This document shows positions 5,834 to 60,413 of a DNA stretch of 64,000 nucleotides, piece by piece. Each line of letters starts with the position of its first letter. Position 1 is the first letter of the stretch. The position numbers and the translations under genes are program-made. The stretch comes from Escherichia phage vB_Eco_mar004NP2: sequence record NC_048205.1, one strand, 5' to 3'. Below the pieces are notes generated by a model that saw only the letters and a list, made by a program, of their open reading frames with translations, did not search any database and had not been told where the DNA came from.

Positions 5834-6114
5834 TTATCTCTCCATTTGCTCTTTGGTTCGTCATTGGGTCTATAGTTGCTATTTACAGCTTGATTGATGA
5901 TCTGTATATCTCTAAGAACAAAGATGTACTTTTATATGTTATACATAAAACACGTCCACTAGATCTAGCACCTCTTGACGATAAAACACTATTAAGATGT
6001 GGTATGTCTGTGCTATTTATTATGGATATTCTGCTAGGACCAGCATCTGTATTTTTCTATTACCGAAAAACTCGTAATATGAAAAAATTTAAAGCAGAAA
6101 TGCAGAATAATTAA
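5830..6114 (+). CDS. small membrane protein, 94 aa
   Basis: two hydrophobic segments; AAGGAAAAGG RBS. Confidence 0.5.
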   Translation: MIISPFALWFVIGSIVAIYSLIDDLYISKNKDVLLYVIHKTRPLDLAPLDDKTLLRCGMSVLFIMDILLGPASVFFYYRKTRNMKKFKAEMQNN

Positions 6115-6224
6115 AGAACTCGCGTAGGACCGAGTTGCGTCACCTGCAACTGTTACGGATAAGGGAGTCGTGCCCCTTAGTGCGGTAAGTGGTGAGTTGG
6201 TCGCTGACCTTAACTGGAGATGAT

Positions 6225-6723: not shown

Positions 6724-7422
6724 ATGAGAATCATTTCTAAATTCGCAGATGTGTATGATTTGCAGAACAGTTTGTTTGATCCCGATCGTGTTTGGGAGCG
6801 TAAAACTGAAGAGTTACTAGTTAAGGTAACTGATGATGCAGAAAAGAACATTGTGCATACTCGCCAAGTATTTCGTGAGGGTTCACTATCTTTCCGTGGT
6901 GACTTCGAATACTTCGTAAACCCACTGTTTATTGCAGGTGAAGTTTACTGGCTACACGAGCTGTACTGCTGGCACCCAGCATTTAGTTTCAAAACGTTCA
7001 ACCTCGACACTATGTTCGATAAAATGGAAGAGATGGGATTGCATGCTCGCTCCTACTTAATGGATAAGAGTCGTGGAGATGTTCGTGAAACAATGCGTGA
7101 TTTGCTCGTTGAAGCAAAACCTAAAGCAGAACGTATCTTGTCCGAACTGCGTGTACCGATTGCATATGTGAAAGGTATTAAGAAGAACGATAACGATGAT
7201 GTTCGTAACTTCGTGATTCAGACTAACATTCGTTTCCATCAGTCAGGTATTCCGTGGCAGGAAATTGAAAGTAACTTATACCGTTTACACCAGATGATCG
7301 AGCAATATATCTGGGGCGTATTAGGAACCGGTGAACCAGATACTATTACCACTTCCGATAAGGATCGCTTAGCTGCATATGGATTTGATATTGTTACTTC
7401 TTTTAGGAATATGAAAAGATGA
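6724..7422 (+). CDS. hypothetical protein, 232 aa
   Basis: long ORF after promoter, RBS AATAGGATTAAAT. Confidence 0.6.
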   Translation: MRIISKFADVYDLQNSLFDPDRVWERKTEELLVKVTDDAEKNIVHTRQVFREGSLSFRGDFEYFVNPLFIAGEVYWLHELYCWHPAFSFKTFNLDTMFDKMEEMGLHARSYLMDKSRGDVRETMRDLLVEAKPKAERILSELRVPIAYVKGIKKNDNDDVRNFVIQTNIRFHQSGIPWQEIESNLYRLHQMIEQYIWGVLGTGEPDTITTSDKDRLAAYGFDIVTSFRNMKR

Positions 7423-9407: not shown

Positions 9408-10007
9408 ATGACTAATAAAAAAGAAGAAAAGACTAACCTGTTTCACTCCATTCGCCAATCTAATGAGTATACCTTTTTCTTTGATGAAGAACTCGGTCCG
9501 CCGGATGAATACCGTGATTTATCAATGGTACTTATGCAAGCAAATGAGGACGACGAAATTAATCTGATGATTAATGGTCCAGGTGGTTATGTTGATACTG
9601 CTGCACAGTTATCTAACTTAATTGCTAATTGCCGTGGAACAGTTATAGGACATCTGGTTGGTCCTAGTGCTTCTGCTTACTGCACAATTTTCCTATCCTG
9701 TCATGGATGGGTAGTACATCCACATGCTACGCTAATGGGACACACGTTCTCTGGCGGATTCTGTGAGAAAGGTCAAGAAATCAAGAAAGCCTATGAATCT
9801 TACAACAAGTTCGTAGAAGATATGATGCTAGATGTCTACTATCCGTTCTTCTCAATAGATGAAATAGACGAGATGGTAAAAGACAACAAAAATATCTATC
9901 TAGATAGCAAGGAAATCCATAAGCGTATTGAAATCTTGGCGAAATATAGATCTGAGCAATATAATAAAATGCAGTTAACTCAATCTGAGGAGCACAACGA
10001 AGAGTAA
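9408..10007 (+). CDS. ClpP-like serine protease
   Basis: LMINGPGGYV motif resembling ClpP INSPGG; 199 aa. Confidence 0.45.
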   Translation: MTNKKEEKTNLFHSIRQSNEYTFFFDEELGPPDEYRDLSMVLMQANEDDEINLMINGPGGYVDTAAQLSNLIANCRGTVIGHLVGPSASAYCTIFLSCHGWVVHPHATLMGHTFSGGFCEKGQEIKKAYESYNKFVEDMMLDVYYPFFSIDEIDEMVKDNKNIYLDSKEIHKRIEILAKYRSEQYNKMQLTQSEEHNEE

Positions 10008-12231: not shown

Positions 12232-12514
12232 ATTAGTCTATCTATTAAAAGGTTCCACCTGTAACCCGTGTAAACTTTTCGAGCCAGTATTTGATAAAGT
12301 AGTCAGTGACTATAATTTGGAAATCCATAAAGAGACTGATAATACAGAATTAATGCAGAAATTTGGTGTGCGCCAAGTTCCTGTAGTAGTTCTGGCGGAT
12401 CGCTTACCTAATGGTCGAGTAGAAGCTAATCATATTCTGATTGGACGTCAGCTTCGTAAAGAAACTATGCACGAAGCTATTAAAAATTTCCTGGATGATA
12501 ATCCAGAGGACTAA
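12224..12514 (+). CDS. thioredoxin/glutaredoxin-like protein (CxxC)
   Basis: CNPC motif near N-terminus, 96 aa. Confidence 0.45.
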   Translation: MSKLVYLLKGSTCNPCKLFEPVFDKVVSDYNLEIHKETDNTELMQKFGVRQVPVVVLADRLPNGRVEANHILIGRQLRKETMHEAIKNFLDDNPED

Positions 12515-21162: not shown

Positions 21163-21764
21163 GTCGGATTCGCACATTGTGTTTCTAGAAATTTATGGTC
21201 GGATTTGCACAATTGCCTAAGTTTTCATGGACACATAATCTCCTGAAAATGGCAGCATTATTTCGGGCCGAAGGCCCATGATTGCCTGAGTTTTTAGAGC
21301 CACAAGAATTTTCACTTGTCAAGCTATTTTGCCACCTTTAGCAAATAAAATTTTACTTTATCTCCACTAATCTCAAATTAACCCAAATCTTCTCAACTCT
21401 TCCCCCAAAAACGCAGCAAATCAGGCGTTGCACGCCACCCATGCTGCTCCTCCAGTTTCTCCACTTATTTTCTCTCGCTCTCTCATCTTCTCCTCAAACC
21501 TATACAATCACACACCCTCCAATCGAAGTCACAAAAATCTTGTCGGATTCGCACATCTTAATCCTAGAAAAACCGTGTCGGATTTGCACATATCCCACAG
21601 GATTCGAACGCAGTTCGAGATTGCTGGAGTTTTTGGGAAAATTCATTGTCGGATTTGCACACTATAAAAATTTTTGGGGTCGGATTTGCACACTACCAAA
21701 AATTGTCGGATTCGCACATACACGCCCGCGCGTAATCCATGGTGGCAAATGTCGGATTTGCACA
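21163..21764 (+). repeat. array of 8 direct repeats GTCGGATT(T/C)GCACA
   Basis: copies at 21163, 21198, 21542, 21577, 21648, 21679, 21705, 21751, all same orientation; candidate injection-stop or protein-binding array. Confidence 0.8.
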
Positions 21765-21796
21765 AAAGCGCAGGGCAATTGCCCTGCGCTAAATAC

Positions 21797-21991
21797 GAAT
21801 GATAATGAGAATCATTCGTATTTAAAAAGCGGAATAAGAATGATAATAGTTCTCATTTAGAAAGTGAAATGAGAATCAATCTCATTTAAGAAAGGGAATG
21901 AGAACTATTCAAAAAATGAAATGATTCTCATTTAAAAAATGGAATGATTATCGGTTAGATAGTGAAATGCGAATGATAATGATTCTCATTT
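21797..21991. promoter_or_regulatory. cluster of about 6 imperfect palindromes AATGAGAAT-N-ATTCTCATT (operator-like; resemble Fur-box halves)
   Basis: copies near 21804, 21845, 21866, 21897, 21918, 21971; further copies at 22328-22348 and 31322-31339. Confidence 0.6.
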
Positions 21992-22096
21992 AAGAATGGA
22001 AGCGAGAAACACTATTATTTAAGTTACCCACAGACTTATTAACAGCACGATTTGATTTGACAGAATCCTAGCCATTTTGAGGCGTTATCAACAGAC

Positions 22097-22105
22097 TTAT
22101 CCACA
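22097..22105 (+). promoter_or_regulatory. DnaA box TTATCCACA
   Basis: exact 9-mer consensus inside left IR arm. Confidence 0.6.
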
Positions 22106-22113
22106 GCTTATCC

Positions 22114-22133
22114 TACTGTATAAATATACAGTA
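22114..22133. promoter_or_regulatory. LexA (SOS) box-like palindrome TACTGTATAAATATACAGTA
   Basis: CTGT-N8-ACAG with AT-rich spacer, 19/20 match to E. coli consensus TACTGTATATATATACAGTA. Confidence 0.55.
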
Positions 22134-22389
22134 TTCCTACGCAGTGAATAATTCTAATATAGCGTTAAAACGTCCTAAATCGCATTCTAACGCGCTTAAT
22201 TTTGATGGGGATACTAAAACAAGGGCAAAATTGGAGGAGGCTTAAAAATTAGTTAGCTTGCTAACGATCACACAAGGCGACACGTAACACCCTAATCATT
22301 AGCAGGCTAACCATCACGGGCGCGGTTAAATGAGAATCACTCTCATTTGAGAATTGGGGGCACTCCCTGGTAGTTGCGCCCCGTTATTA

Positions 22390-22584
22390 TTAGTCTGGTA
22401 GTCGATGCGTGATCTTTTCCTCCTCCCCGTAGGAATCCACCAAATGCTGATAATAACCATCGTGATCATAAATCACTTTATCATACTCGCCACGCTCGAC
22501 CGCTTGTCGGTTTTCCGGCGTATCGGGCACGTAAAAAACATCAACCATTGTACTGATTTTGGTTACAACAATTTTATTGCTCAT
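22390..22584 (-). CDS. cassette gene 7, hypothetical acidic protein (64 aa from internal ATG)
   Basis: ORF track 22390..22614 uses TTG; ATG at 22584 has AGGGG RBS. Confidence 0.4.
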   Translation of the reverse strand: MSNKIVVTKISTMVDVFYVPDTPENRQAVERGEYDKVIYDHDGYYQHLVDSYGEEEKITHRLPD

Positions 22585-25601: not shown

Positions 25602-25712
25602 CCTGTATATTTATACAGTAGGATAACATGTGGATAAGTCTGTGGATAAGTCCTTATATCGTCGCCTATCGTGTCAAATCATTTTGTGCTGTTAATAAAC
25701 TTGTGGATAACT
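25602..25712. repeat. right arm of inverted repeat; contains LexA-like box CTGTATATTTATACAG (25603-25618) and three DnaA boxes
   Basis: TGTGGATAA at 25629, 25641, 25702 (reverse complement of TTATCCACA). Confidence 0.8.
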
Positions 25713-25994
25713 TAAATGATAGTGGTTCTCACTTAGGACGATAGTTTCTTATAGTTATTATTTCTATCGGTTACGATTTCTTATAATTATTATTTCTCAT
25801 TAATTTATAAGTATATTATATATCATGAAATAGTTAGTTGGCTAATGAGATTTTCCGTGATTAATAGTCTGCTAACAGTTCCGGCTGTTACAATCCACCA
25901 GCATGATTATCATCCTAGCAACTATTAGTCTGCTATCTTTCCGATGCATACTAACAAATAAAAGTCAATTAATTTATTTCATAAAATAAGTAGT

Positions 25995-27264: not shown

Positions 27265-27672
27265 ATGACTAACGTTAAAACCGCAAAATTTGCTTGGAAT
27301 GAAGAAAACACTCAAAAAGCTGTTTCTATGTACCAGCAGTTAATTAATGAAAACGGTTTAGATTTCGCAAATAGCGACGGTTTAAAAGAGATTGCAAAAG
27401 CAGTGGGCGCGTCTTCTCCCGTGTCTGTTCGCTCAAAATTGACCAGCGCAAAAGCGTATCAGAAAAGCGATAAGCCTCGCAAAGTTGGCGGCGGTAGCTC
27501 AATCCGCAAAGCTCACTATGTACGCGTTATCGCTAAACATGCTATTGATTCCGGCATTATTAAAGACGCCGACGATCTGGCAAGTCTGGAAAGTGCAAAA
27601 CTTGAAACGCTGGACGCCGTAGCGCAACTGTTAGGCGTTGCCGATGAAGTAAAACAGGCCGCAGGTGAATAA
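27265..27672 (+). CDS. A2: pre-early protein, 135 aa; candidate A2-like DNA-binding protein
   Basis: size and position next to A1-like gene as in T5; assignment by synteny only. Confidence 0.35.
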   Translation: MTNVKTAKFAWNEENTQKAVSMYQQLINENGLDFANSDGLKEIAKAVGASSPVSVRSKLTSAKAYQKSDKPRKVGGGSSIRKAHYVRVIAKHAIDSGIIKDADDLASLESAKLETLDAVAQLLGVADEVKQAAGE

Positions 27673-30512: not shown

Positions 30513-31247
30513 ATGAATAAAGCTATCATGAATCTTTCCCGCAGCTTCCCGCATATTTCCCGCGTCATGATTTGGGATTTAGACGGCACTATCATTAATT
30601 CTTTCCATCGTGTAGCACCCTGCTTTGATAGCGAGGGCAATTTAGATTTAAATAAGTATAAAAATGAAGCGTGTAAACACCATTTAATAATGCAAGATAC
30701 TTTATTGCCATTGGTTGAATATATGCGCCAGTGCATGAATGACGCAAATACTTTAAACATTATTTGCACCGCTCGACTGATGAGTAAGTCGGACTATTAT
30801 TTCTTGCGTAAACAAGGGTTGCGCGGTCGTGGTAATAGTAATATCCGCGTATTTTCCCGCGATACACTACACAAATATTTTAAAGCTGATAAGGTTAGCG
30901 AAATATACCACAGCAAAGACGCAGTATATAAATCTTATTATTTTGAATTATTTAAACAGTTATATCCTAACGCTGATTTTACAATGATTGATGATCATAA
31001 AGGCGTGCTATCAGCGGCAGCGTCATACGGATTTAAAACGCTGGACGCACAAGCCGTTAATGATATTCTATCAATCGGCGTGGCATTGATAGGTGAAACC
31101 TTTATTGATGAATCTCTCGACGATGATAATGATTATCAATTCCTAGCTGACCGTTTAAAATTATGCTGGGAAGGTATGACCGAGGAAGAACGCGCAGAAT
31201 ATAGTTGCAGTCCTCAACAATATATTGAGAAATTAAAAGTTGCCTAA
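30513..31247 (+). CDS. dmp: 5'-deoxyribonucleotidase (HAD-like), Dmp-like
   Basis: 244 aa as in T5 Dmp; HAD motif I in VMIWDLDGTIIN; last gene of the island. Confidence 0.55.
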   Translation: MNKAIMNLSRSFPHISRVMIWDLDGTIINSFHRVAPCFDSEGNLDLNKYKNEACKHHLIMQDTLLPLVEYMRQCMNDANTLNIICTARLMSKSDYYFLRKQGLRGRGNSNIRVFSRDTLHKYFKADKVSEIYHSKDAVYKSYYFELFKQLYPNADFTMIDDHKGVLSAAASYGFKTLDAQAVNDILSIGVALIGETFIDESLDDDNDYQFLADRLKLCWEGMTEEERAEYSCSPQQYIEKLKVA

Positions 31248-31399
31248 CAATTAAAGTTGAAATAGTCACGGTGTGTAATGATACCATGCCGTGACTATTA
31301 GCCTGCTAAGTACCGGGCGGTAATGAGACTCATTCTCATCTGGGGGGCCACTGGACACACCCACGCGTACGTAATCCAAAGAAATTGGCAAAAGTCAAA

Positions 31400-31645
31400 T
31401 TAGCGCATAGAAGGGTCATCAAACCTGTATTCTGGTCTGAACTCACGGAATCTCTTCCGCGACGCCCGAGATCCATCCGACCACTCCCGCTCAAACTCCG
31501 CACGTTTCTCGTCAAACTTCCGCTCCCTTTCCGCAATCTCCCGCGTCACTCCCGCAATATATTTACGATGCTTATTGATTGCCGCAGTCGTCCCGAAAAC
31601 TCCCGTGAGTATCCCGATAATAAAAGCAATTACAATACTAAACAT
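31400..31645 (-). CDS. small TM protein with highly charged tail, 81 aa
   Basis: ORF track; N-terminal TM helix. Confidence 0.4.
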   Translation of the reverse strand: MFSIVIAFIIGILTGVFGTTAAINKHRKYIAGVTREIAERERKFDEKRAEFEREWSDGSRASRKRFREFRPEYRFDDPSMR

Positions 31646-31832
31646 CTAATTCCCTCTCAATTTGCAGAATACGGGTACTATCACAGCGTTGAAGCTCTAC
31701 TAATTTTTCTAGTGCAAATTGTTGCTGCTTTACCTGGGCCTCTAGAGTTTTTAGGCGAACATACGCGGTATAAGAAACAATGAAAATTGCCCAGATTAAT
31801 ATTACTATTAATGTAGCTGCCACTTCCATCAT
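31638..31832 (-). CDS. small TM + coiled-coil protein, 64 aa
   Basis: ORF track; ATGATGG overlap. Confidence 0.4.
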   Translation of the reverse strand: MMEVAATLIVILIWAIFIVSYTAYVRLKTLEAQVKQQQFALEKLVELQRCDSTRILQIERELDV

Positions 31833-31936
31833 TTACGTTTCTCCAGCAATAAAGTTTCAATTCTAGCTAAGTGATTATCTAAAATACATTGCCCAATAAT
31901 CACAATCCCTAATAGTGCAATAATTACCCATTCCAT
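31829..31936 (-). CDS. micro membrane protein, 35 aa (not in ORF track)
   Basis: MEWVIIALLGIVIIGQCILDNHLARIETLLLEKRK; coupled TAATGG/ATGATGG junctions. Confidence 0.3.
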   Translation of the reverse strand: MEWVIIALLGIVIIGQCILDNHLARIETLLLEKRK

Positions 31937-32064
31937 TAAATCCACCCCGCCATAGCTGCTAACCAAAAACCTACGAAAATAAAGAATAGGAGAGTTCCGA
32001 ACCCAAAACTATTTATCCAACTCTCATACACCTCTCCGCGTCTATTATTTCTTTTGTTTGACAT
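31936..32064 (-). CDS. micro membrane protein, 42 aa (not in ORF track)
   Basis: GGGAG RBS; MSNKRNNRRGEVYESWINSFGFGTLLFFIFVGFWLAAMAGWI. Confidence 0.3.
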   Translation of the reverse strand: MSNKRNNRRGEVYESWINSFGFGTLLFFIFVGFWLAAMAGWI

Positions 32065-32231
32065 ATCTTTCGTGCTCCCATAAATGTGATATTTTAAAAT
32101 ATGTGCATAACCAACCGTGCTTGTGGACTCCTAGAAGGACTTCTACTTTTCTTACATAGTGGTTTCTGCCAATATACCATCCAAGAAATAAAAAATTTAG
32201 TTTACTTGGATGTCTTTTTGTTTTATACTAA

Positions 32232-32498
32232 TTACAGGTAATTAGATTGCTCTAGTTTAAATTTACAATCACCATATTTAAGGTCAAACTGACTGAGATC
32301 CCACCACCCAAATTTAGTACGGAGCTGTACTACTGGAAAGCGATCTCCCTTAATACGAACTTTTTGAACCTTGAGACCGTAATATTCTTCTCCCGCACCA
32401 CCAAAAGATTTTACAAATCCCGTACAAAATGGTTTGGGAGCAGGTACACAACCAGATAATATAACTGTGGCAACTAGTGCAATTACAAACTTTTTCAT
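32232..32498 (-). CDS. llp: Llp-like lipoprotein (receptor-blocking superinfection-exclusion type)
   Basis: signal peptide with lipobox LSGC; small size; adjacent and antisense to the receptor-binding protein gene as in T5. Confidence 0.5.
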   Translation of the reverse strand: MKKFVIALVATVILSGCVPAPKPFCTGFVKSFGGAGEEYYGLKVQKVRIKGDRFPVVQLRTKFGWWDLSQFDLKYGDCKFKLEQSNYL

Positions 32499-32583
32499 AT
32501 TTATCTCTCCATTTCTAATTTATGAATTTATTATAGCAAAATAGAGGGATGAAAGCAAATACATTTTTATAATAGGAGATTAT

Positions 32584-34341
32584 ATGGGTTTTTTCGCTGG
32601 AAAGTATAGCGATGGTAAGACCGTACTATCTTTAAATACTGAATCTGGGGGTGACATTAATCGTCACTATAGTCCAAGTAATAATAGTATTTTTCATAGT
32701 GATATGCCATTTGTTCTAGTTGAGGGTACTTATGAGGCAGGATTAGGTGATGCCGGGAATGGGTTTTTCGTATGTCAGATGCCTCCTGATATAGTAAATA
32801 TTAAATCTAATGATCCTGGTAGAGTTATACTAACTGCTATTGAGATTAATGGTACTCACAGAGCTTTTCTTAATGGTACTCAGAGTAAAGTTGGTCAAAC
32901 TATAGTTGCCACTCAAGCAGACCCCTTTAGATCTTTTGCTAGTGTTTCTCAAACCAGTGGATTTGCATTTGGTAATAGTCTAGCATCTGGAACTTATAAT
33001 TATAACCCATCGATAGGGCACGAAGAATCTATCTCTAGGAGTGGTACAGGTGGTACTACGTTACATAGTACCTACCATGGGATAGTTAGGCCTGGTGCGG
33101 GAGCTCCTGTAGGTGTTACTGTTGCAGAAGCCTTTGCACAATTAGGTTTTCCTACTAATAGTAGCACAGTACCTGTAGATGGGAATAACCCGTACTATTG
33201 GGATCCTGGATGGATGTCGCCTCTAGGAGCAGCACATAGAGGGCATGATTGGTTTTATGTTTGCAACTCTAATATACGTGGATACGGTGGGGTTAGACAA
33301 GGGCTCCCAGGTAATGTAAATACTATGTACCACGACGGTGGGAACAGATTTGTTTGTAGGGGATCTACTACTAATTTAGCTAACCAGTCGGGTGACTCTA
33401 CAATACTACAGGATTGGTATAATATAACCCCTACTAAGGTTATTTGGTATGTTCTTAATTTAAGGTACTCTAATGGTGGAATGAGTATTTCAGGCAACCC
33501 CTTTACTGGTTCTGATATTCTTATATCTCCTTCTAATTTCATAATTAAAGGGGTAAGTCTCCCTAATACCGGGTATAAATTTATAAATCAGAATGCTTTT
33601 GGTAACCTAGGTTACCGTCCTGATATGGAGTATATAGGAAATAACGCAGCGTATACCGGGGTTTTTGGGGATACCACGGCAAGGTGTGAACTTGTAGGGT
33701 CTAGTAATGGAGGATTATGGTCTCCTGTAGACTATGGTGGAGCTAAATCCCAAATTAGCATTTACAAATTCGGAGCTGGTAAGCAATGGTATGTAAACTC
33801 TAGGGATAATACTATCGGTAATGAACACGGGGTTGTTTGGGGACCATCAGCAGTTCCATTACGACTTTTTGGTGGAAATGTAGGTAGCTCTTACATGGGG
33901 GATGATATTACTCCCAGCTACCCGGGAACAGGGGATAGATACGTTGGTTTATCAACTATTGGGCTAGGTATACCGGGTGGCAATGCTACAGTAATTCTTA
34001 CCACTGAAGTTATATCAGGTAACCTTAACTGTGCAGGTGTTCCTGCTAATACATGGAATAACGGTGTGTTTCAAGTGCAAGGAAGAAGAGCATATAGCTA
34101 TAGTAATGGAGATGCAATATTCCACCAGATTTTAACATTACCAGTAGGGTATTTAGTACCTTTTCATACTACATCTGCTTTTAGGTACACACCTAACAAT
34201 GCCCTAAGTAGAAATAGTTTTATATATACTGCTAAAAATCTGGGGAATGGAAATGTAGAGTTAGGGGTAGTTATGCACGTAAGTTTAGGTAGTGCAGTTT
34301 TCCTACCGAGATTAAGAGTAACAGTTCAACGCCTTACCTAA
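32584..34341 (+). CDS. receptor-binding tail protein (pb5-like), 585 aa
   Basis: position between llp and terminase as in T5; Gly/Asn/Ser-rich. Confidence 0.5.
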
Positions 34342-58643: not shown

Positions 58644-60413
58644 ATGGTAACTAAAACAGTAATTCCTACGGATATTACAAAACTTAAAAATGAGTCACTT
58701 AATAAAAATAATAACCTGAGTGACTTAGCAGACCGTGCAGCAGCATGGCTAAATGTGCGTCCTATTGGATCTACCCCTCTTGCTGGAGATCCTGTTAGTG
58801 ACTATGATGCCGCAACTAAGCGTTGGGTGGAGAACAAACTTAATACTGGCACAGTAGGACCCACAATGAATGGTGTTATGAACTACGGGGTGGGGGATTT
58901 TCATCTTCGAGATAGCCGTGCGTATATTCAACCTTATGAGGTAGTTTCTGATGGGCAGCTTCTTAACAGGGCTGACTGGCCTGAACTTTGGGCGTATGCA
59001 CAAATGGTTGGAGCTATAGATGATTCAGTTTGGTTAGCAGATGTAGGACAACGTGGGAAATATTCTACGGGAGATGGTACCACTACTTTCCGCGTCCCAG
59101 ATCGTAATGGTGTGCAACTAAATTCAATCAAAGGGTTATTCGCTCGTGGTGACGGTGGGGGGGATGCTGGTCAAGCTGGTTCAATATCAGAAGCTGCAGC
59201 ACCCAATATTACTGGTAGTTTTCCTGGCGCTATTGCTGGTGCATATGAAGAAGCGCTTAATAGATATTCATCTAGATTTGGTCTTATTGGGGCGATTGGT
59301 GGTGAAAACGGCTTAGGTGCCGCTCCTGGAGGTGCATCTAAATCATTCGCCGTAGTTAATCCTGATAACCAATACGGATTTAGTTTTGATGCAAACTTAG
59401 CGGACCCTGTTTATGGGCGTTATGGAATAAAAGGTACTATTATTCCAAACAGCTTTATAGGTGTCTGGGTAATCCGTGCTTCTGGTGGGTTCGTGGCTGC
59501 AAAGACTTCGTGGAGTGTTATTAGTGGTGATGCTGTCAAACCTAATACTGGTACTACTGTTTATGGCGGGAGTGTACTATCTGAGTATAAAGTAGGTACT
59601 AGTAGTGAGGCTGTAAGTACACTACGAGCTAAAGCTACTATTGGTGGCACCTACTCTACTGAACTACTAATAGACAATAAATCTACCGGTAAATCGAATT
59701 CCGCCCAGCTTGTAGATAATGGGGATTTTGTAACGGATCGTTTTAAAGCTAGATTAGTTACTGGCATGGCGTGGTCTCAGACTGGCTGGGTACAAGGTAC
59801 TCTTTCTCAGAACGAGGTCAATATAGGTAGTACATTTAACTTTAATAGTATATTGAGCGGTTCCCAGTCTTCTTCCGCAGGGTATAAGACATCTGCACAT
59901 TTTGGATTAATTCATAATGACTTAGGCTCATTTGCAGATTCTTGTTGGCAGGTAGCGGGAGATGATGATAATAAATTTGGTGTGCGTTTAAAAATTCAGC
60001 CGAATAATAATAGTATTTATTTTTATTCTTGGTGGCCAGGTGCTTCAGCAACCTATACTTTGCAATTAAATGCTGTATCTGATTCTCGCTTAAAGCATGA
60101 TATTAAGGCTATAGACGCAACTAAGTCCATCGAGGTATTAAAAGGATTAGAATTCCAATCCTTTGTATATAATAACGATGAAAAATCTCGTGTCCGACGT
60201 GGGGTTATTGCTCAGCAAGTAGAGACTATAGAACCACTTTATGTAAAAACTAGAAAATTTTATAATGATGACGGAATAGAGCAGGAGCAAAAGGAATTAG
60301 ATACAACTCCAATGCTTCTTGACACTATGCATGTTGTGCAAGATCTTATTAAACGGATTGAAGATCTAGAGAAAGAGCTTGAGCAATTAAAGGTACAATT
60401 AGTATCACAATAA
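58644..60413 (+). CDS. L-shaped tail fibre protein B with C-terminal intramolecular chaperone (S74-like autoproteolytic) domain
   Basis: C-terminal LQLNAVSDSRLKHDIKAID...LEFQSFVYN motif typical of self-cleaving fibre chaperone domains, followed by coiled coil. Confidence 0.6.
   Translation: MVTKTVIPTDITKLKNESLNKNNNLSDLADRAAAWLNVRPIGSTPLAGDPVSDYDAATKRWVENKLNTGTVGPTMNGVMNYGVGDFHLRDSRAYIQPYEVVSDGQLLNRADWPELWAYAQMVGAIDDSVWLADVGQRGKYSTGDGTTTFRVPDRNGVQLNSIKGLFARGDGGGDAGQAGSISEAAAPNITGSFPGAIAGAYEEALNRYSSRFGLIGAIGGENGLGAAPGGASKSFAVVNPDNQYGFSFDANLADPVYGRYGIKGTIIPNSFIGVWVIRASGGFVAAKTSWSVISGDAVKPNTGTTVYGGSVLSEYKVGTSSEAVSTLRAKATIGGTYSTELLIDNKSTGKSNSAQLVDNGDFVTDRFKARLVTGMAWSQTGWVQGTLSQNEVNIGSTFNFNSILSGSQSSSAGYKTSAHFGLIHNDLGSFADSCWQVAGDDDNKFGVRLKIQPNNNSIYFYSWWPGASATYTLQLNAVSDSRLKHDIKAIDATKSIEVLKGLEFQSFVYNNDEKSRVRRGVIAQQVETIEPLYVKTRKFYNDDGIEQEQKELDTTPMLLDTMHVVQDLIKRIEDLEKELEQLKVQLVSQ

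Follow-up and report, generated by a model that had tools for sequence, protein, structure and literature searches.

A cluster of palindromes at positions 21797-21991 of the DNA analysed here, a stretch of 64,000 nt from Escherichia phage vB_Eco_mar004NP2 (NC_048205.1) that is called the window in the following, is, judged by its sequence, an operator-grade match to the Fur box that equals the best sites of the host. The sites are identical in type with Fur operators, the strong ones are restricted to the terminal repeat of the phage genome, and the array is conserved in relatives. We consider with moderate confidence that the array consists of protein-binding sites of the Fur-box type, that host Fe-Fur is the likeliest binder and that it would act there on phage DNA. 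Literature searches returned no paper linking T5 and Fur, and the identity of the array as a set of operator-grade Fur boxes appears to be new.

Comparison with SPC35 and T5 identified the window as DNA of a T5-like phage that runs opposite to the T5 map. A megablast search with positions 21400-22450 matched 447 phage records, nearly all of them from T5-like phages of Salmonella, Escherichia and Klebsiella, with at least 80% of the query covered in 183 of them; where the matching region is annotated, it is designated "left terminal repeat; first-step-transfer DNA". Positions 31000-33000 are 100% identical with Salmonella phages SPLA5b and PMBT29. The terminal repeat has a length of about 10 kb (Table 1) and carries dmp, A1, A2 and small pre-early genes, while the array is located near its inner end, about 500-700 bp from the repeat boundary, in a position between convergent transcription units. 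Placed between DnaA-box inverted repeats on one side and DRD repeats on the other, it corresponds by homology as well as synteny to T5 9468-9637, between IRC' and palindrome J, and is thus the counterpart of direct repeat C and palindromes E-I, i.e., of Repeat Region 3 in the injection-stop region of T5.

Table 1. Sites, repeats and genes in the 64,000-nt window of Escherichia phage vB_Eco_mar004NP2 (NC_048205.1); scores in bits are given in the order of the sites named.
Feature	Position	Strand	Remarks
Terminal repeat (first-step-transfer DNA)	about 21298 (inner boundary)..31357 (physical left end)		predicted by register with the LTR annotation and ends of T5
Six DRD repeats, GTCGGATT[TC]GCACA	21542..21764	+	other flank of the array; T5 annotation
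GC-rich hairpin (T5 palindrome J), then TTTT on the minus strand	21767..21790	-	bounds the array; -13.7 kcal/mol, z = -5.7
Two overlapping Fur-box-like 19-mers, 6-bp offset (21798-21816, 21804-21822)	21798..21822		Fur matrix 22.7 and 20.3 bits; palindrome with 2/18 mismatches
Overlapping pair (21833-21851 weak, 21839-21857 strong)	21833..21857		13.5 and 25.4 bits
Strong palindrome AATGAGAATCAATCTCATT	21868..21886		21.9 bits; 1 mismatch
Two degenerate units (21897-21915, 21914-21932)	21897..21932		8.0 and 6.8 bits; one good half-site each
Overlapping pair (starts 21966, 21972)	21966..21990		15.6 and 27.8 bits
Composite module (T5 IRC'): degenerate Fur-like site 22001-22019, 4-bp gap, DnaA-type boxes 22024-22032 and 22036-22044	22001..22044		10.1 bits
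Second DnaA-box pair (T5 IRD'), TTATCAACA and TTATCCACA	22085..22105	+	described for T5-like phages in 10.1101/866236
Strong single copy beyond the leftward pre-early operon	22329..22347		22.9 bits
Inverted composite duplicate (T5 IRC): DnaA boxes 25690-25698 and 25702-25710, 4-bp gap, Fur-like site 25715-25733	25690..25733		19.5 bits
A2 gene	27265..27672	+	rival candidate binder; dimeric DNA-binding protein essential for second-step transfer
Fur-grade site GATGATAATGATTATCAAT within the dmp coding sequence	31122..31140		22.4 bits; membership uncertain
Terminus-proximal copy AATGAGACTCATTCTCATC	31322..31340		16.0 bits

With at most one mismatch allowed, the half-site AATGAGAAT occurs 55 times in the window as compared to 30.2 ± 6.0 expected occurrences, a number not reached in any of 100 shuffled sequences, and 12 of the 55 matches fall inside 21798-21990, where the expectation for 193 bp is about 0.09. 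Full 19-mers of the type AATGAGAATNATTCTCATT with no more than two mismatches in 18 positions start exclusively at 21804, 21839, 21868, 21972, 22329 and 31322 in the entire 64 kb, and weaker or half copies of the palindrome start at 21798, 21833, 21897, 21914, 21966 and 22001. The half-site counts and the positions of the full 19-mers confirm the cluster as well as the two isolated copies and place them well outside what chance would produce. The preliminary description had reported at least six imperfect copies in 200 bp, which is a fair account of what is found, namely four strong and complete palindromes, of which three overlap a second copy at a 6-bp offset, plus half-sites, and it had also located the two isolated copies (22329-22347 and 31322-31340) correctly.

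In order to quantify the resemblance to Fur boxes, a matrix was derived by palindrome-constrained expectation-maximisation from 700 random seeds, with no consensus given, using as training set the E. coli K-12 intergenic regions fepA-fes, fepD-entS, fepB-entC, fhuA, fecI, tonB, exbB, cirA, fiu and ryhB and, as the eleventh region, the iucA promoter of a ColV-type plasmid. This promoter-trained matrix replaced a mismatch count against GATAATGATAATCATTATC, which had given only 13-16 matching positions out of 19 and many background matches. The consensus obtained from the 11 promoter regions, AATGATAATCATTATCATT, equals the phage palindrome AATGAGAATcATTCTCATT in length and register and differs from it only at positions 6 and 14, which are the least informative columns of the Fur matrix (0.7 bit; G at 19%). 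The half-site comparison made originally had used GATAATGAT, which is out of register by 3 bp; once aligned properly, the Fur half is AATGATAAT, and the difference at one position that had been claimed holds true. When scored in a leave-one-out procedure, real operators lay between 10.1 and 24.1 bits (median, 19.5 bits), and the phage sites, none of which was part of the training set, matched the 19-bp Fur consensus at the operator level with 16-27.8 bits (individual values in Table 1). The top site of the window, 21972-21990, even lies above the best held-out real operator. The Fur-box resemblance is therefore full-length, in the same register and comparable in score to the best host operators, and is stronger than first claimed.

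Seven sites of at least 20 bits are present in the window as compared to 0.045 expected from 200 dinucleotide shuffles, and all of them are located in the terminal repeat. A Fur-matrix scan of positions 42001-86000 of SPLA5b (44 kb), which served as a stand-in for the genome part outside the window and stems from a close relative that is not identical throughout, yielded no site of at least 15 bits, while in 62.5 kb of K-12 DNA such sites were confined to Fur-regulated intergenic regions, among them the fecA promoter region that had not been included in the training set. Chance or low complexity as the origin of the array was ruled out by the shuffles and by the absence of sites elsewhere in the genome. 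Two further matches deserve mention. The site at 60003-60021 (AATAATAATAGTATTTATT, 17.0 bits) is the sole one of at least 15 bits in the window outside of the terminal repeat and is low-complexity, AT-rich sequence that probably arose by chance. The site within dmp at 31122-31140 is kept in Eos and the Klebsiella phages and, in a weaker form that reaches 17.7 bits in T5 and 18.0 bits in Proteus phage 2, also in these two, a conservation that coding constraint could explain.

A second matrix was derived de novo, with 25 distinct phage arrays as input. Its consensus is AATGAGAATCATTCTCATT, it departs from the Fur matrix at positions 6 and 14 alone, and it shows a mean column correlation of 0.90 with that matrix, a value not reached in any of 10,000 column permutations. 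The agreement extends to minor bases, i.e., C at position 5, A at position 4 and C/G at the centre. At position 6, phage sites prefer G over T and host sites T over G. That the G variant is normal for Fur is evident from the aerobactin operator, which contains AATGAGAATCATT about 20 bp upstream of iucA (804 plasmids), and from the occurrence of the exact phage palindrome at bacterial iron genes. Among the matches listed, this exact palindrome is found in more than 120 bacterial genomes, where it resides 16-90 bp upstream of genes for a TonB siderophore receptor, two FecI-type sigma factors, bfd and an iron ABC transporter ATPase and also about 280 bp from feoB, neighbours that were picked by eye from 20 loci and illustrate usage, not frequency. 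Clustering at 6-bp intervals is another shared property: a partner of at least 13 bits at a distance of +/-6 bp accompanies 94 of 179 strong phage sites vs. 17 expected, and phased overlap of this type has been reported for Fur operators (PMC2189734).

The preliminary description had made its proposal dependent on conservation of the motif in T5-like relatives, and this was borne out. The motif is present in all 35 distinct loci that were fetched through A2, and each of the 33 distinct arrays keeps 3-7 sites of at least 18 bits despite turnover of the units, with a best site of 23.7-29.6 bits and with spacings of 6, 29 and 35 bp, 6 bp being the commonest. The array persists at 62-66% identity of A2 (Eos, Klebsiella phages). 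Pectobacterium phage My1, a member of another subfamily, has the array beside DRD repeats together with two central copies and a further copy at nt 17-35 of its annotated left repeat. The counterpart of the isolated copy at 22329-22347, which follows the last ORF of the leftward pre-early operon at a distance of about 40 bp, is a perfect palindrome in many relatives and is kept even when the flanks differ. T5 has neither this copy, in the vicinity of which it features a GC-rich terminator instead, nor the one at 31322, so that the isolated copies are dispensable.

The terminal copy at 31322-31340 is located about 17 bp inside the predicted left physical genome end. Most relatives share an identical version of it, flank GGCGGT included, and in genomes deposited with terminal repeats, including that of My1, its distance from the record end is 16-17 nt or it occupies nt 17-35. 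The surrounding element GGCGGTAATGAGACT..TTCTCATC (window 31314-31357) is conserved, inclusive of non-palindromic bases, from phages of Salmonella and E. coli to those of Pectobacterium and Vibrio, e.g., in Vibrio phage Hades (extracted locus 7305-7335), and has been lost in T5. It may have a role in end formation or packaging besides, or instead of, binding the protein that binds the array.

In Vibrio phages D232 and Hades as well as in Proteus phage 2, the array is absent at the equivalent place, which is taken by other repeats, and scattered copies only are found. The Vibrio and Proteus hosts concerned use the same Fur box, which counts against Fur as the binder. Hades keeps DRD-like repeats and DnaA boxes, with other repeats between them, and its five matches of at least 13 bits are all situated inside the predicted terminal repeat. 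Where the enterobacterial phages have the Fur-like array, Hades features repeats of the TACCGTATAAAAT type (extracted locus 450-830), and Proteus phage 2 carries 15-18-bp CCACCATTCTATTATTC repeats in its place (extracted locus 6020-6210 / 7187-7340) and in addition three 46-bp repeats, each with GTGATTATCATTAC, which contains one good Fur-like half-site. DRD-like repeats occur in My1 (extracted locus 12355-12500) and Hades (100-337) and are thus more widely conserved than the Fur-like array.

Fur-like sites also form part of composite modules with DnaA boxes. In the module next to the array, which is homologous to T5 9424-9462, the DnaA-type boxes read TTACCCACA and TTATTAACA; its inverted duplicate lies about 3.7 kb away in the divergent pre-early promoter region, and in both modules the DnaA boxes are 3 bp apart. 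This arrangement suggests that the DnaA-box and Fur-like motifs work together. On the other flank, DRD repeats start at nine places in the window (19400, 21163, 21198, 21542, 21577, 21648, 21679, 21705 and 21751), three of the nine being outside the predicted repeat boundary, and each contains ATTTGCACA, which matches the DnaA box TTWTNCACA in 8 of 9 positions. The 7.9% nick of T5 is annotated next to palindrome J. The hairpin at 21767-21790 that corresponds to palindrome J and a separate GC-rich hairpin downstream of dmp (31264-31297) are likely terminators.

Fur is the simplest candidate for the binder, as each of the sequence tests applied classes the motif as a Fur box. We infer that Fur would occupy the array sites in vivo and that such binding would have consequences for the phage DNA itself. 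The 19-bp unit AATGAKAAT-S-ATTMKCATT would constitute the site for one dimer, with a second site often overlapping at a 6-bp offset, and the iron-loaded host repressor would already be in the cell when phage DNA arrives. The array takes up the last-entering ~200 bp of the first-step-transfer DNA and directly abuts two DnaA-box pairs; single copies are found past the final gene of one pre-early operon, 17 bp away from the end that enters and in the central promoter region. Fur would coat this boundary segment, probably with DnaA as a partner, and give rise to a nucleoprotein structure that would act on phage DNA and not on host genes. Such a structure might serve as an anchor or a roadblock where the pre-early transcription units end or, alternatively, as an iron-dependent brake or signal at the pause preceding second-step transfer. 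The placement on first-step DNA and the lack of convincing promoters favour an architectural or boundary role for Fur, possibly exerted with DnaA. The T5 repeats are located near the 7.9% shear point, and the calculated shear point of T5 at 9618 lies inside the T5 site pair 9612/9618. On the other hand, T5-type phages often enter via receptors that are expressed when Fur is inactive, which counts against Fur.

Two questions about T5 have been open since the 1960s: why its DNA transfer halts at about 8%, and which targets A1 and A2 have. The largest repeat family of the stop region is indistinguishable from high-affinity Fur operators, and this similarity would put a name to an abundant, pre-existing host protein. 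A far-reaching version of the Fur proposal, which we regard as doubtful, is that the Fur array and the DnaA-box pairs form the cis element of the T5 injection-stop signal with host Fur as the missing host factor. Fe-Fur would load onto the last-entering 200 bp and would hold or mark the DNA until newly formed A1/A2 displace it or act on it, and the iron state of the host would in that case govern how genome transfer pauses and resumes. A 2026 preprint on T5 deletions makes no mention of deleting the non-coding stop region. Should Fur indeed bind, a virulent phage would be employing a metal regulator in an unusual way, on phage DNA and not at a promoter, and infection via iron-regulated receptors would be linked to the iron state of the host; should it not bind, the array sites would become the prime candidate target of A2.

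Binding by a dimeric DNA-binding protein of the phage, most obviously A2 with or without A1, is the alternative that survives best and appears possible, albeit rather unlikely. The protein would start second-step transfer from the palindromes, the likeness to Fur boxes would be due to mimicry or competition with Fur for the sites, and both proteins could be involved if A2 competes with Fur. A2 has been purified as a DNA-binding dimer, is essential for second-step transfer, has no known target and is encoded on the same first-step DNA that holds all strong sites. In addition, A2 and the terminus-proximal element are both conserved family-wide, as far as the Vibrio phages, and the preference of the phage sites for G at position 6 is unlike host Fur sites. 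The structural model of A2 (pLDDT 84.8) predicts an N-terminal three-helix domain, whose closest matches are Myb repeats and the DNA-binding domain of GcrA, and a C-terminal part that is likewise helical, separated by a segment, PRKVGG.S.RK, that is nearly invariant across the family. The structure search pointed to a generic Myb/GcrA-like helix bundle and gave no clue to specificity, comparison of A2 with Pfam gave nothing significant, and the protein is listed in PHROGs as "DNA binding protein" only. The suggestion of A2 as binder, already made in the preliminary description, has kept its plausibility and gained no support: the helix SVRSKL..K.Y.K, which is the putative DNA-reading one, does not vary in A2 of the Vibrio and Proteus phages although the array is absent there, and binding by A2 leaves the full-length, same-register Fur match, the secondary base preferences and the 6-bp phasing unexplained.

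Operators in the usual sense, which had also been envisaged, are not what the array resembles, as it is situated between convergent units and promoter-like matches at the array, with regard to overlap with the promoter of an iron-responsive gene, attain only 9/12. In the absence of a convincing promoter the array is not a classical Fur operator. It is improbable that the Fur-like units are operators of weak minus-strand promoters (rightward in T5 coordinates) inside the array, from which short iron-regulated transcripts would end at the palindrome-J terminator or would be read toward DNA that has not yet entered. The candidates are matches of the type TTCACT-17-TATCAT and TTTAAA-16-TATCAT with a Fur-like site across the spacer, and the Rfam model for PrrF, a Fur-repressed sRNA gene whose -35 element and Fur box form the beginning of the model, can be aligned to minus-strand positions 21868-21761, terminal hairpin and U-run included, the hairpin being followed by TTTT on that strand. 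However, Rfam returned sub-threshold matches only, the PrrF-like alignment scores 23.4 bits vs. a gathering score of 90 and is a lead, not evidence, and the -10 match is merely part of the Fur-like site. Furthermore, the order of units differs in T5, meaning that the hairpin-plus-terminator layout is not conserved, and no promoter is annotated there in T5. As a separate observation, the minus strand of 21761-21868 combines the PrrF-like alignment with a mismatch-free inverted repeat of 14 bp (21790-21803 / 21811-21824) and with the hairpin and U-run of palindrome J; this segment may represent a short iron-regulated transcript.

It is very unlikely that the palindromes are DNA or RNA structures (hairpin, cruciform, terminator) or packaging/terminus signals instead of regulator sites. 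The fixed distance of 16-17 nt between the terminal copy and the end and the retention of this copy with two non-palindromic bases and GGCGGT would be in line with such a function, as would the modest folding of some units (-5.6 to -6.0 kcal/mol). The array itself, however, is removed from the repeat boundary by several hundred bp, and its best Fur-matrix site folds poorly as a single strand (-1.6 kcal/mol). Moreover, the bases at positions 6 and 14 complement each other in just 39% of the sites, i.e., the half-sites vary independently and changes in one arm are not compensated in the other, which argues for a protein site rather than a hairpin; such a pattern typically marks sites recognised by a dimeric protein. 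A search of 21200-22500 gave no terminator-like element, and the likely terminators are separate GC-rich hairpins. These hairpins, together with the lack of T-runs at the palindromes, also ruled out the isolated copies as terminators. Hardly credible, finally, is the second purpose that had been considered at the outset, a decoy array that titrates host Fur and derepresses iron-uptake and receptor genes, since, numerous and operator-like as the sites are and even if thousands of array copies per cell would be present after replication, the single copy entering in the pre-early phase offers about 10 sites, T5 degrades host DNA pre-early, within minutes, and shuts host expression early, such that host genes cannot respond, and extra receptor would inactivate progeny phage, a receptor-blocking protein being encoded next to the repeat.

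Among known systems, T5 Repeat Region 3 is closest, with homologous sequence, the same neighbours and the same place near the inner end of the repeat (AY587007; 10.1101/866236). AY587007 lists direct repeat C copies 1-4 and palindromes E-I at T5 9468-9637, flanked by the inverted repeats D'/C' with DnaA boxes on one side and by palindrome J, the 7.9% nick and DRD on the other. Order and number of the units differ between T5 and vB_Eco_mar004NP2, and the copies at 22329 and 31322 are shared by most relatives and not by T5. In the accessible text of the Davison preprint, "Repeat Region 3" is described as highly conserved, more so than the neighbouring genes, the first-step shear point is calculated at 9618, the function of the repeats is said to be impossible to guess, and Fur is not mentioned (10.1101/866236). 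The same text proposes a role in two-step injection for the DnaA-box pairs in the injection-stop region of T5, through binding of host DnaA (10.1101/866236). Fur binding would resemble this proposal in that a pre-existing host DNA-binding protein would be located on the last-entering first-step DNA, with the Fur-like sites coupled to DnaA-box pairs, and would differ from it in the host protein and the motif involved. A comparison with iteron origins is suggested by the adjacent DnaA boxes, yet the units are palindromic and the 29/35-bp spacings are not helical multiples; according to the preprint, T5 origins map mid-genome (10.1101/866236).

Enterobacterial Fur operators such as those of iucA, ryhB, fhuA and fecI, described by the 19-bp "M9" model (Chen et al., 2007, PMC2189734), have the same palindrome, register and alternative bases as the phage sites and likewise feature overlapping sites at a 6-bp offset, with the phage scores equal to or above those of real operators. 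In contrast to these operators, the phage array does not overlap a credible iron-gene promoter and prefers G over T. It is also unusually long, with 4-7 strong sites over about 200 bp and a unit spacing of 29/35 bp, and it resides on a virulent phage, next to DnaA boxes.
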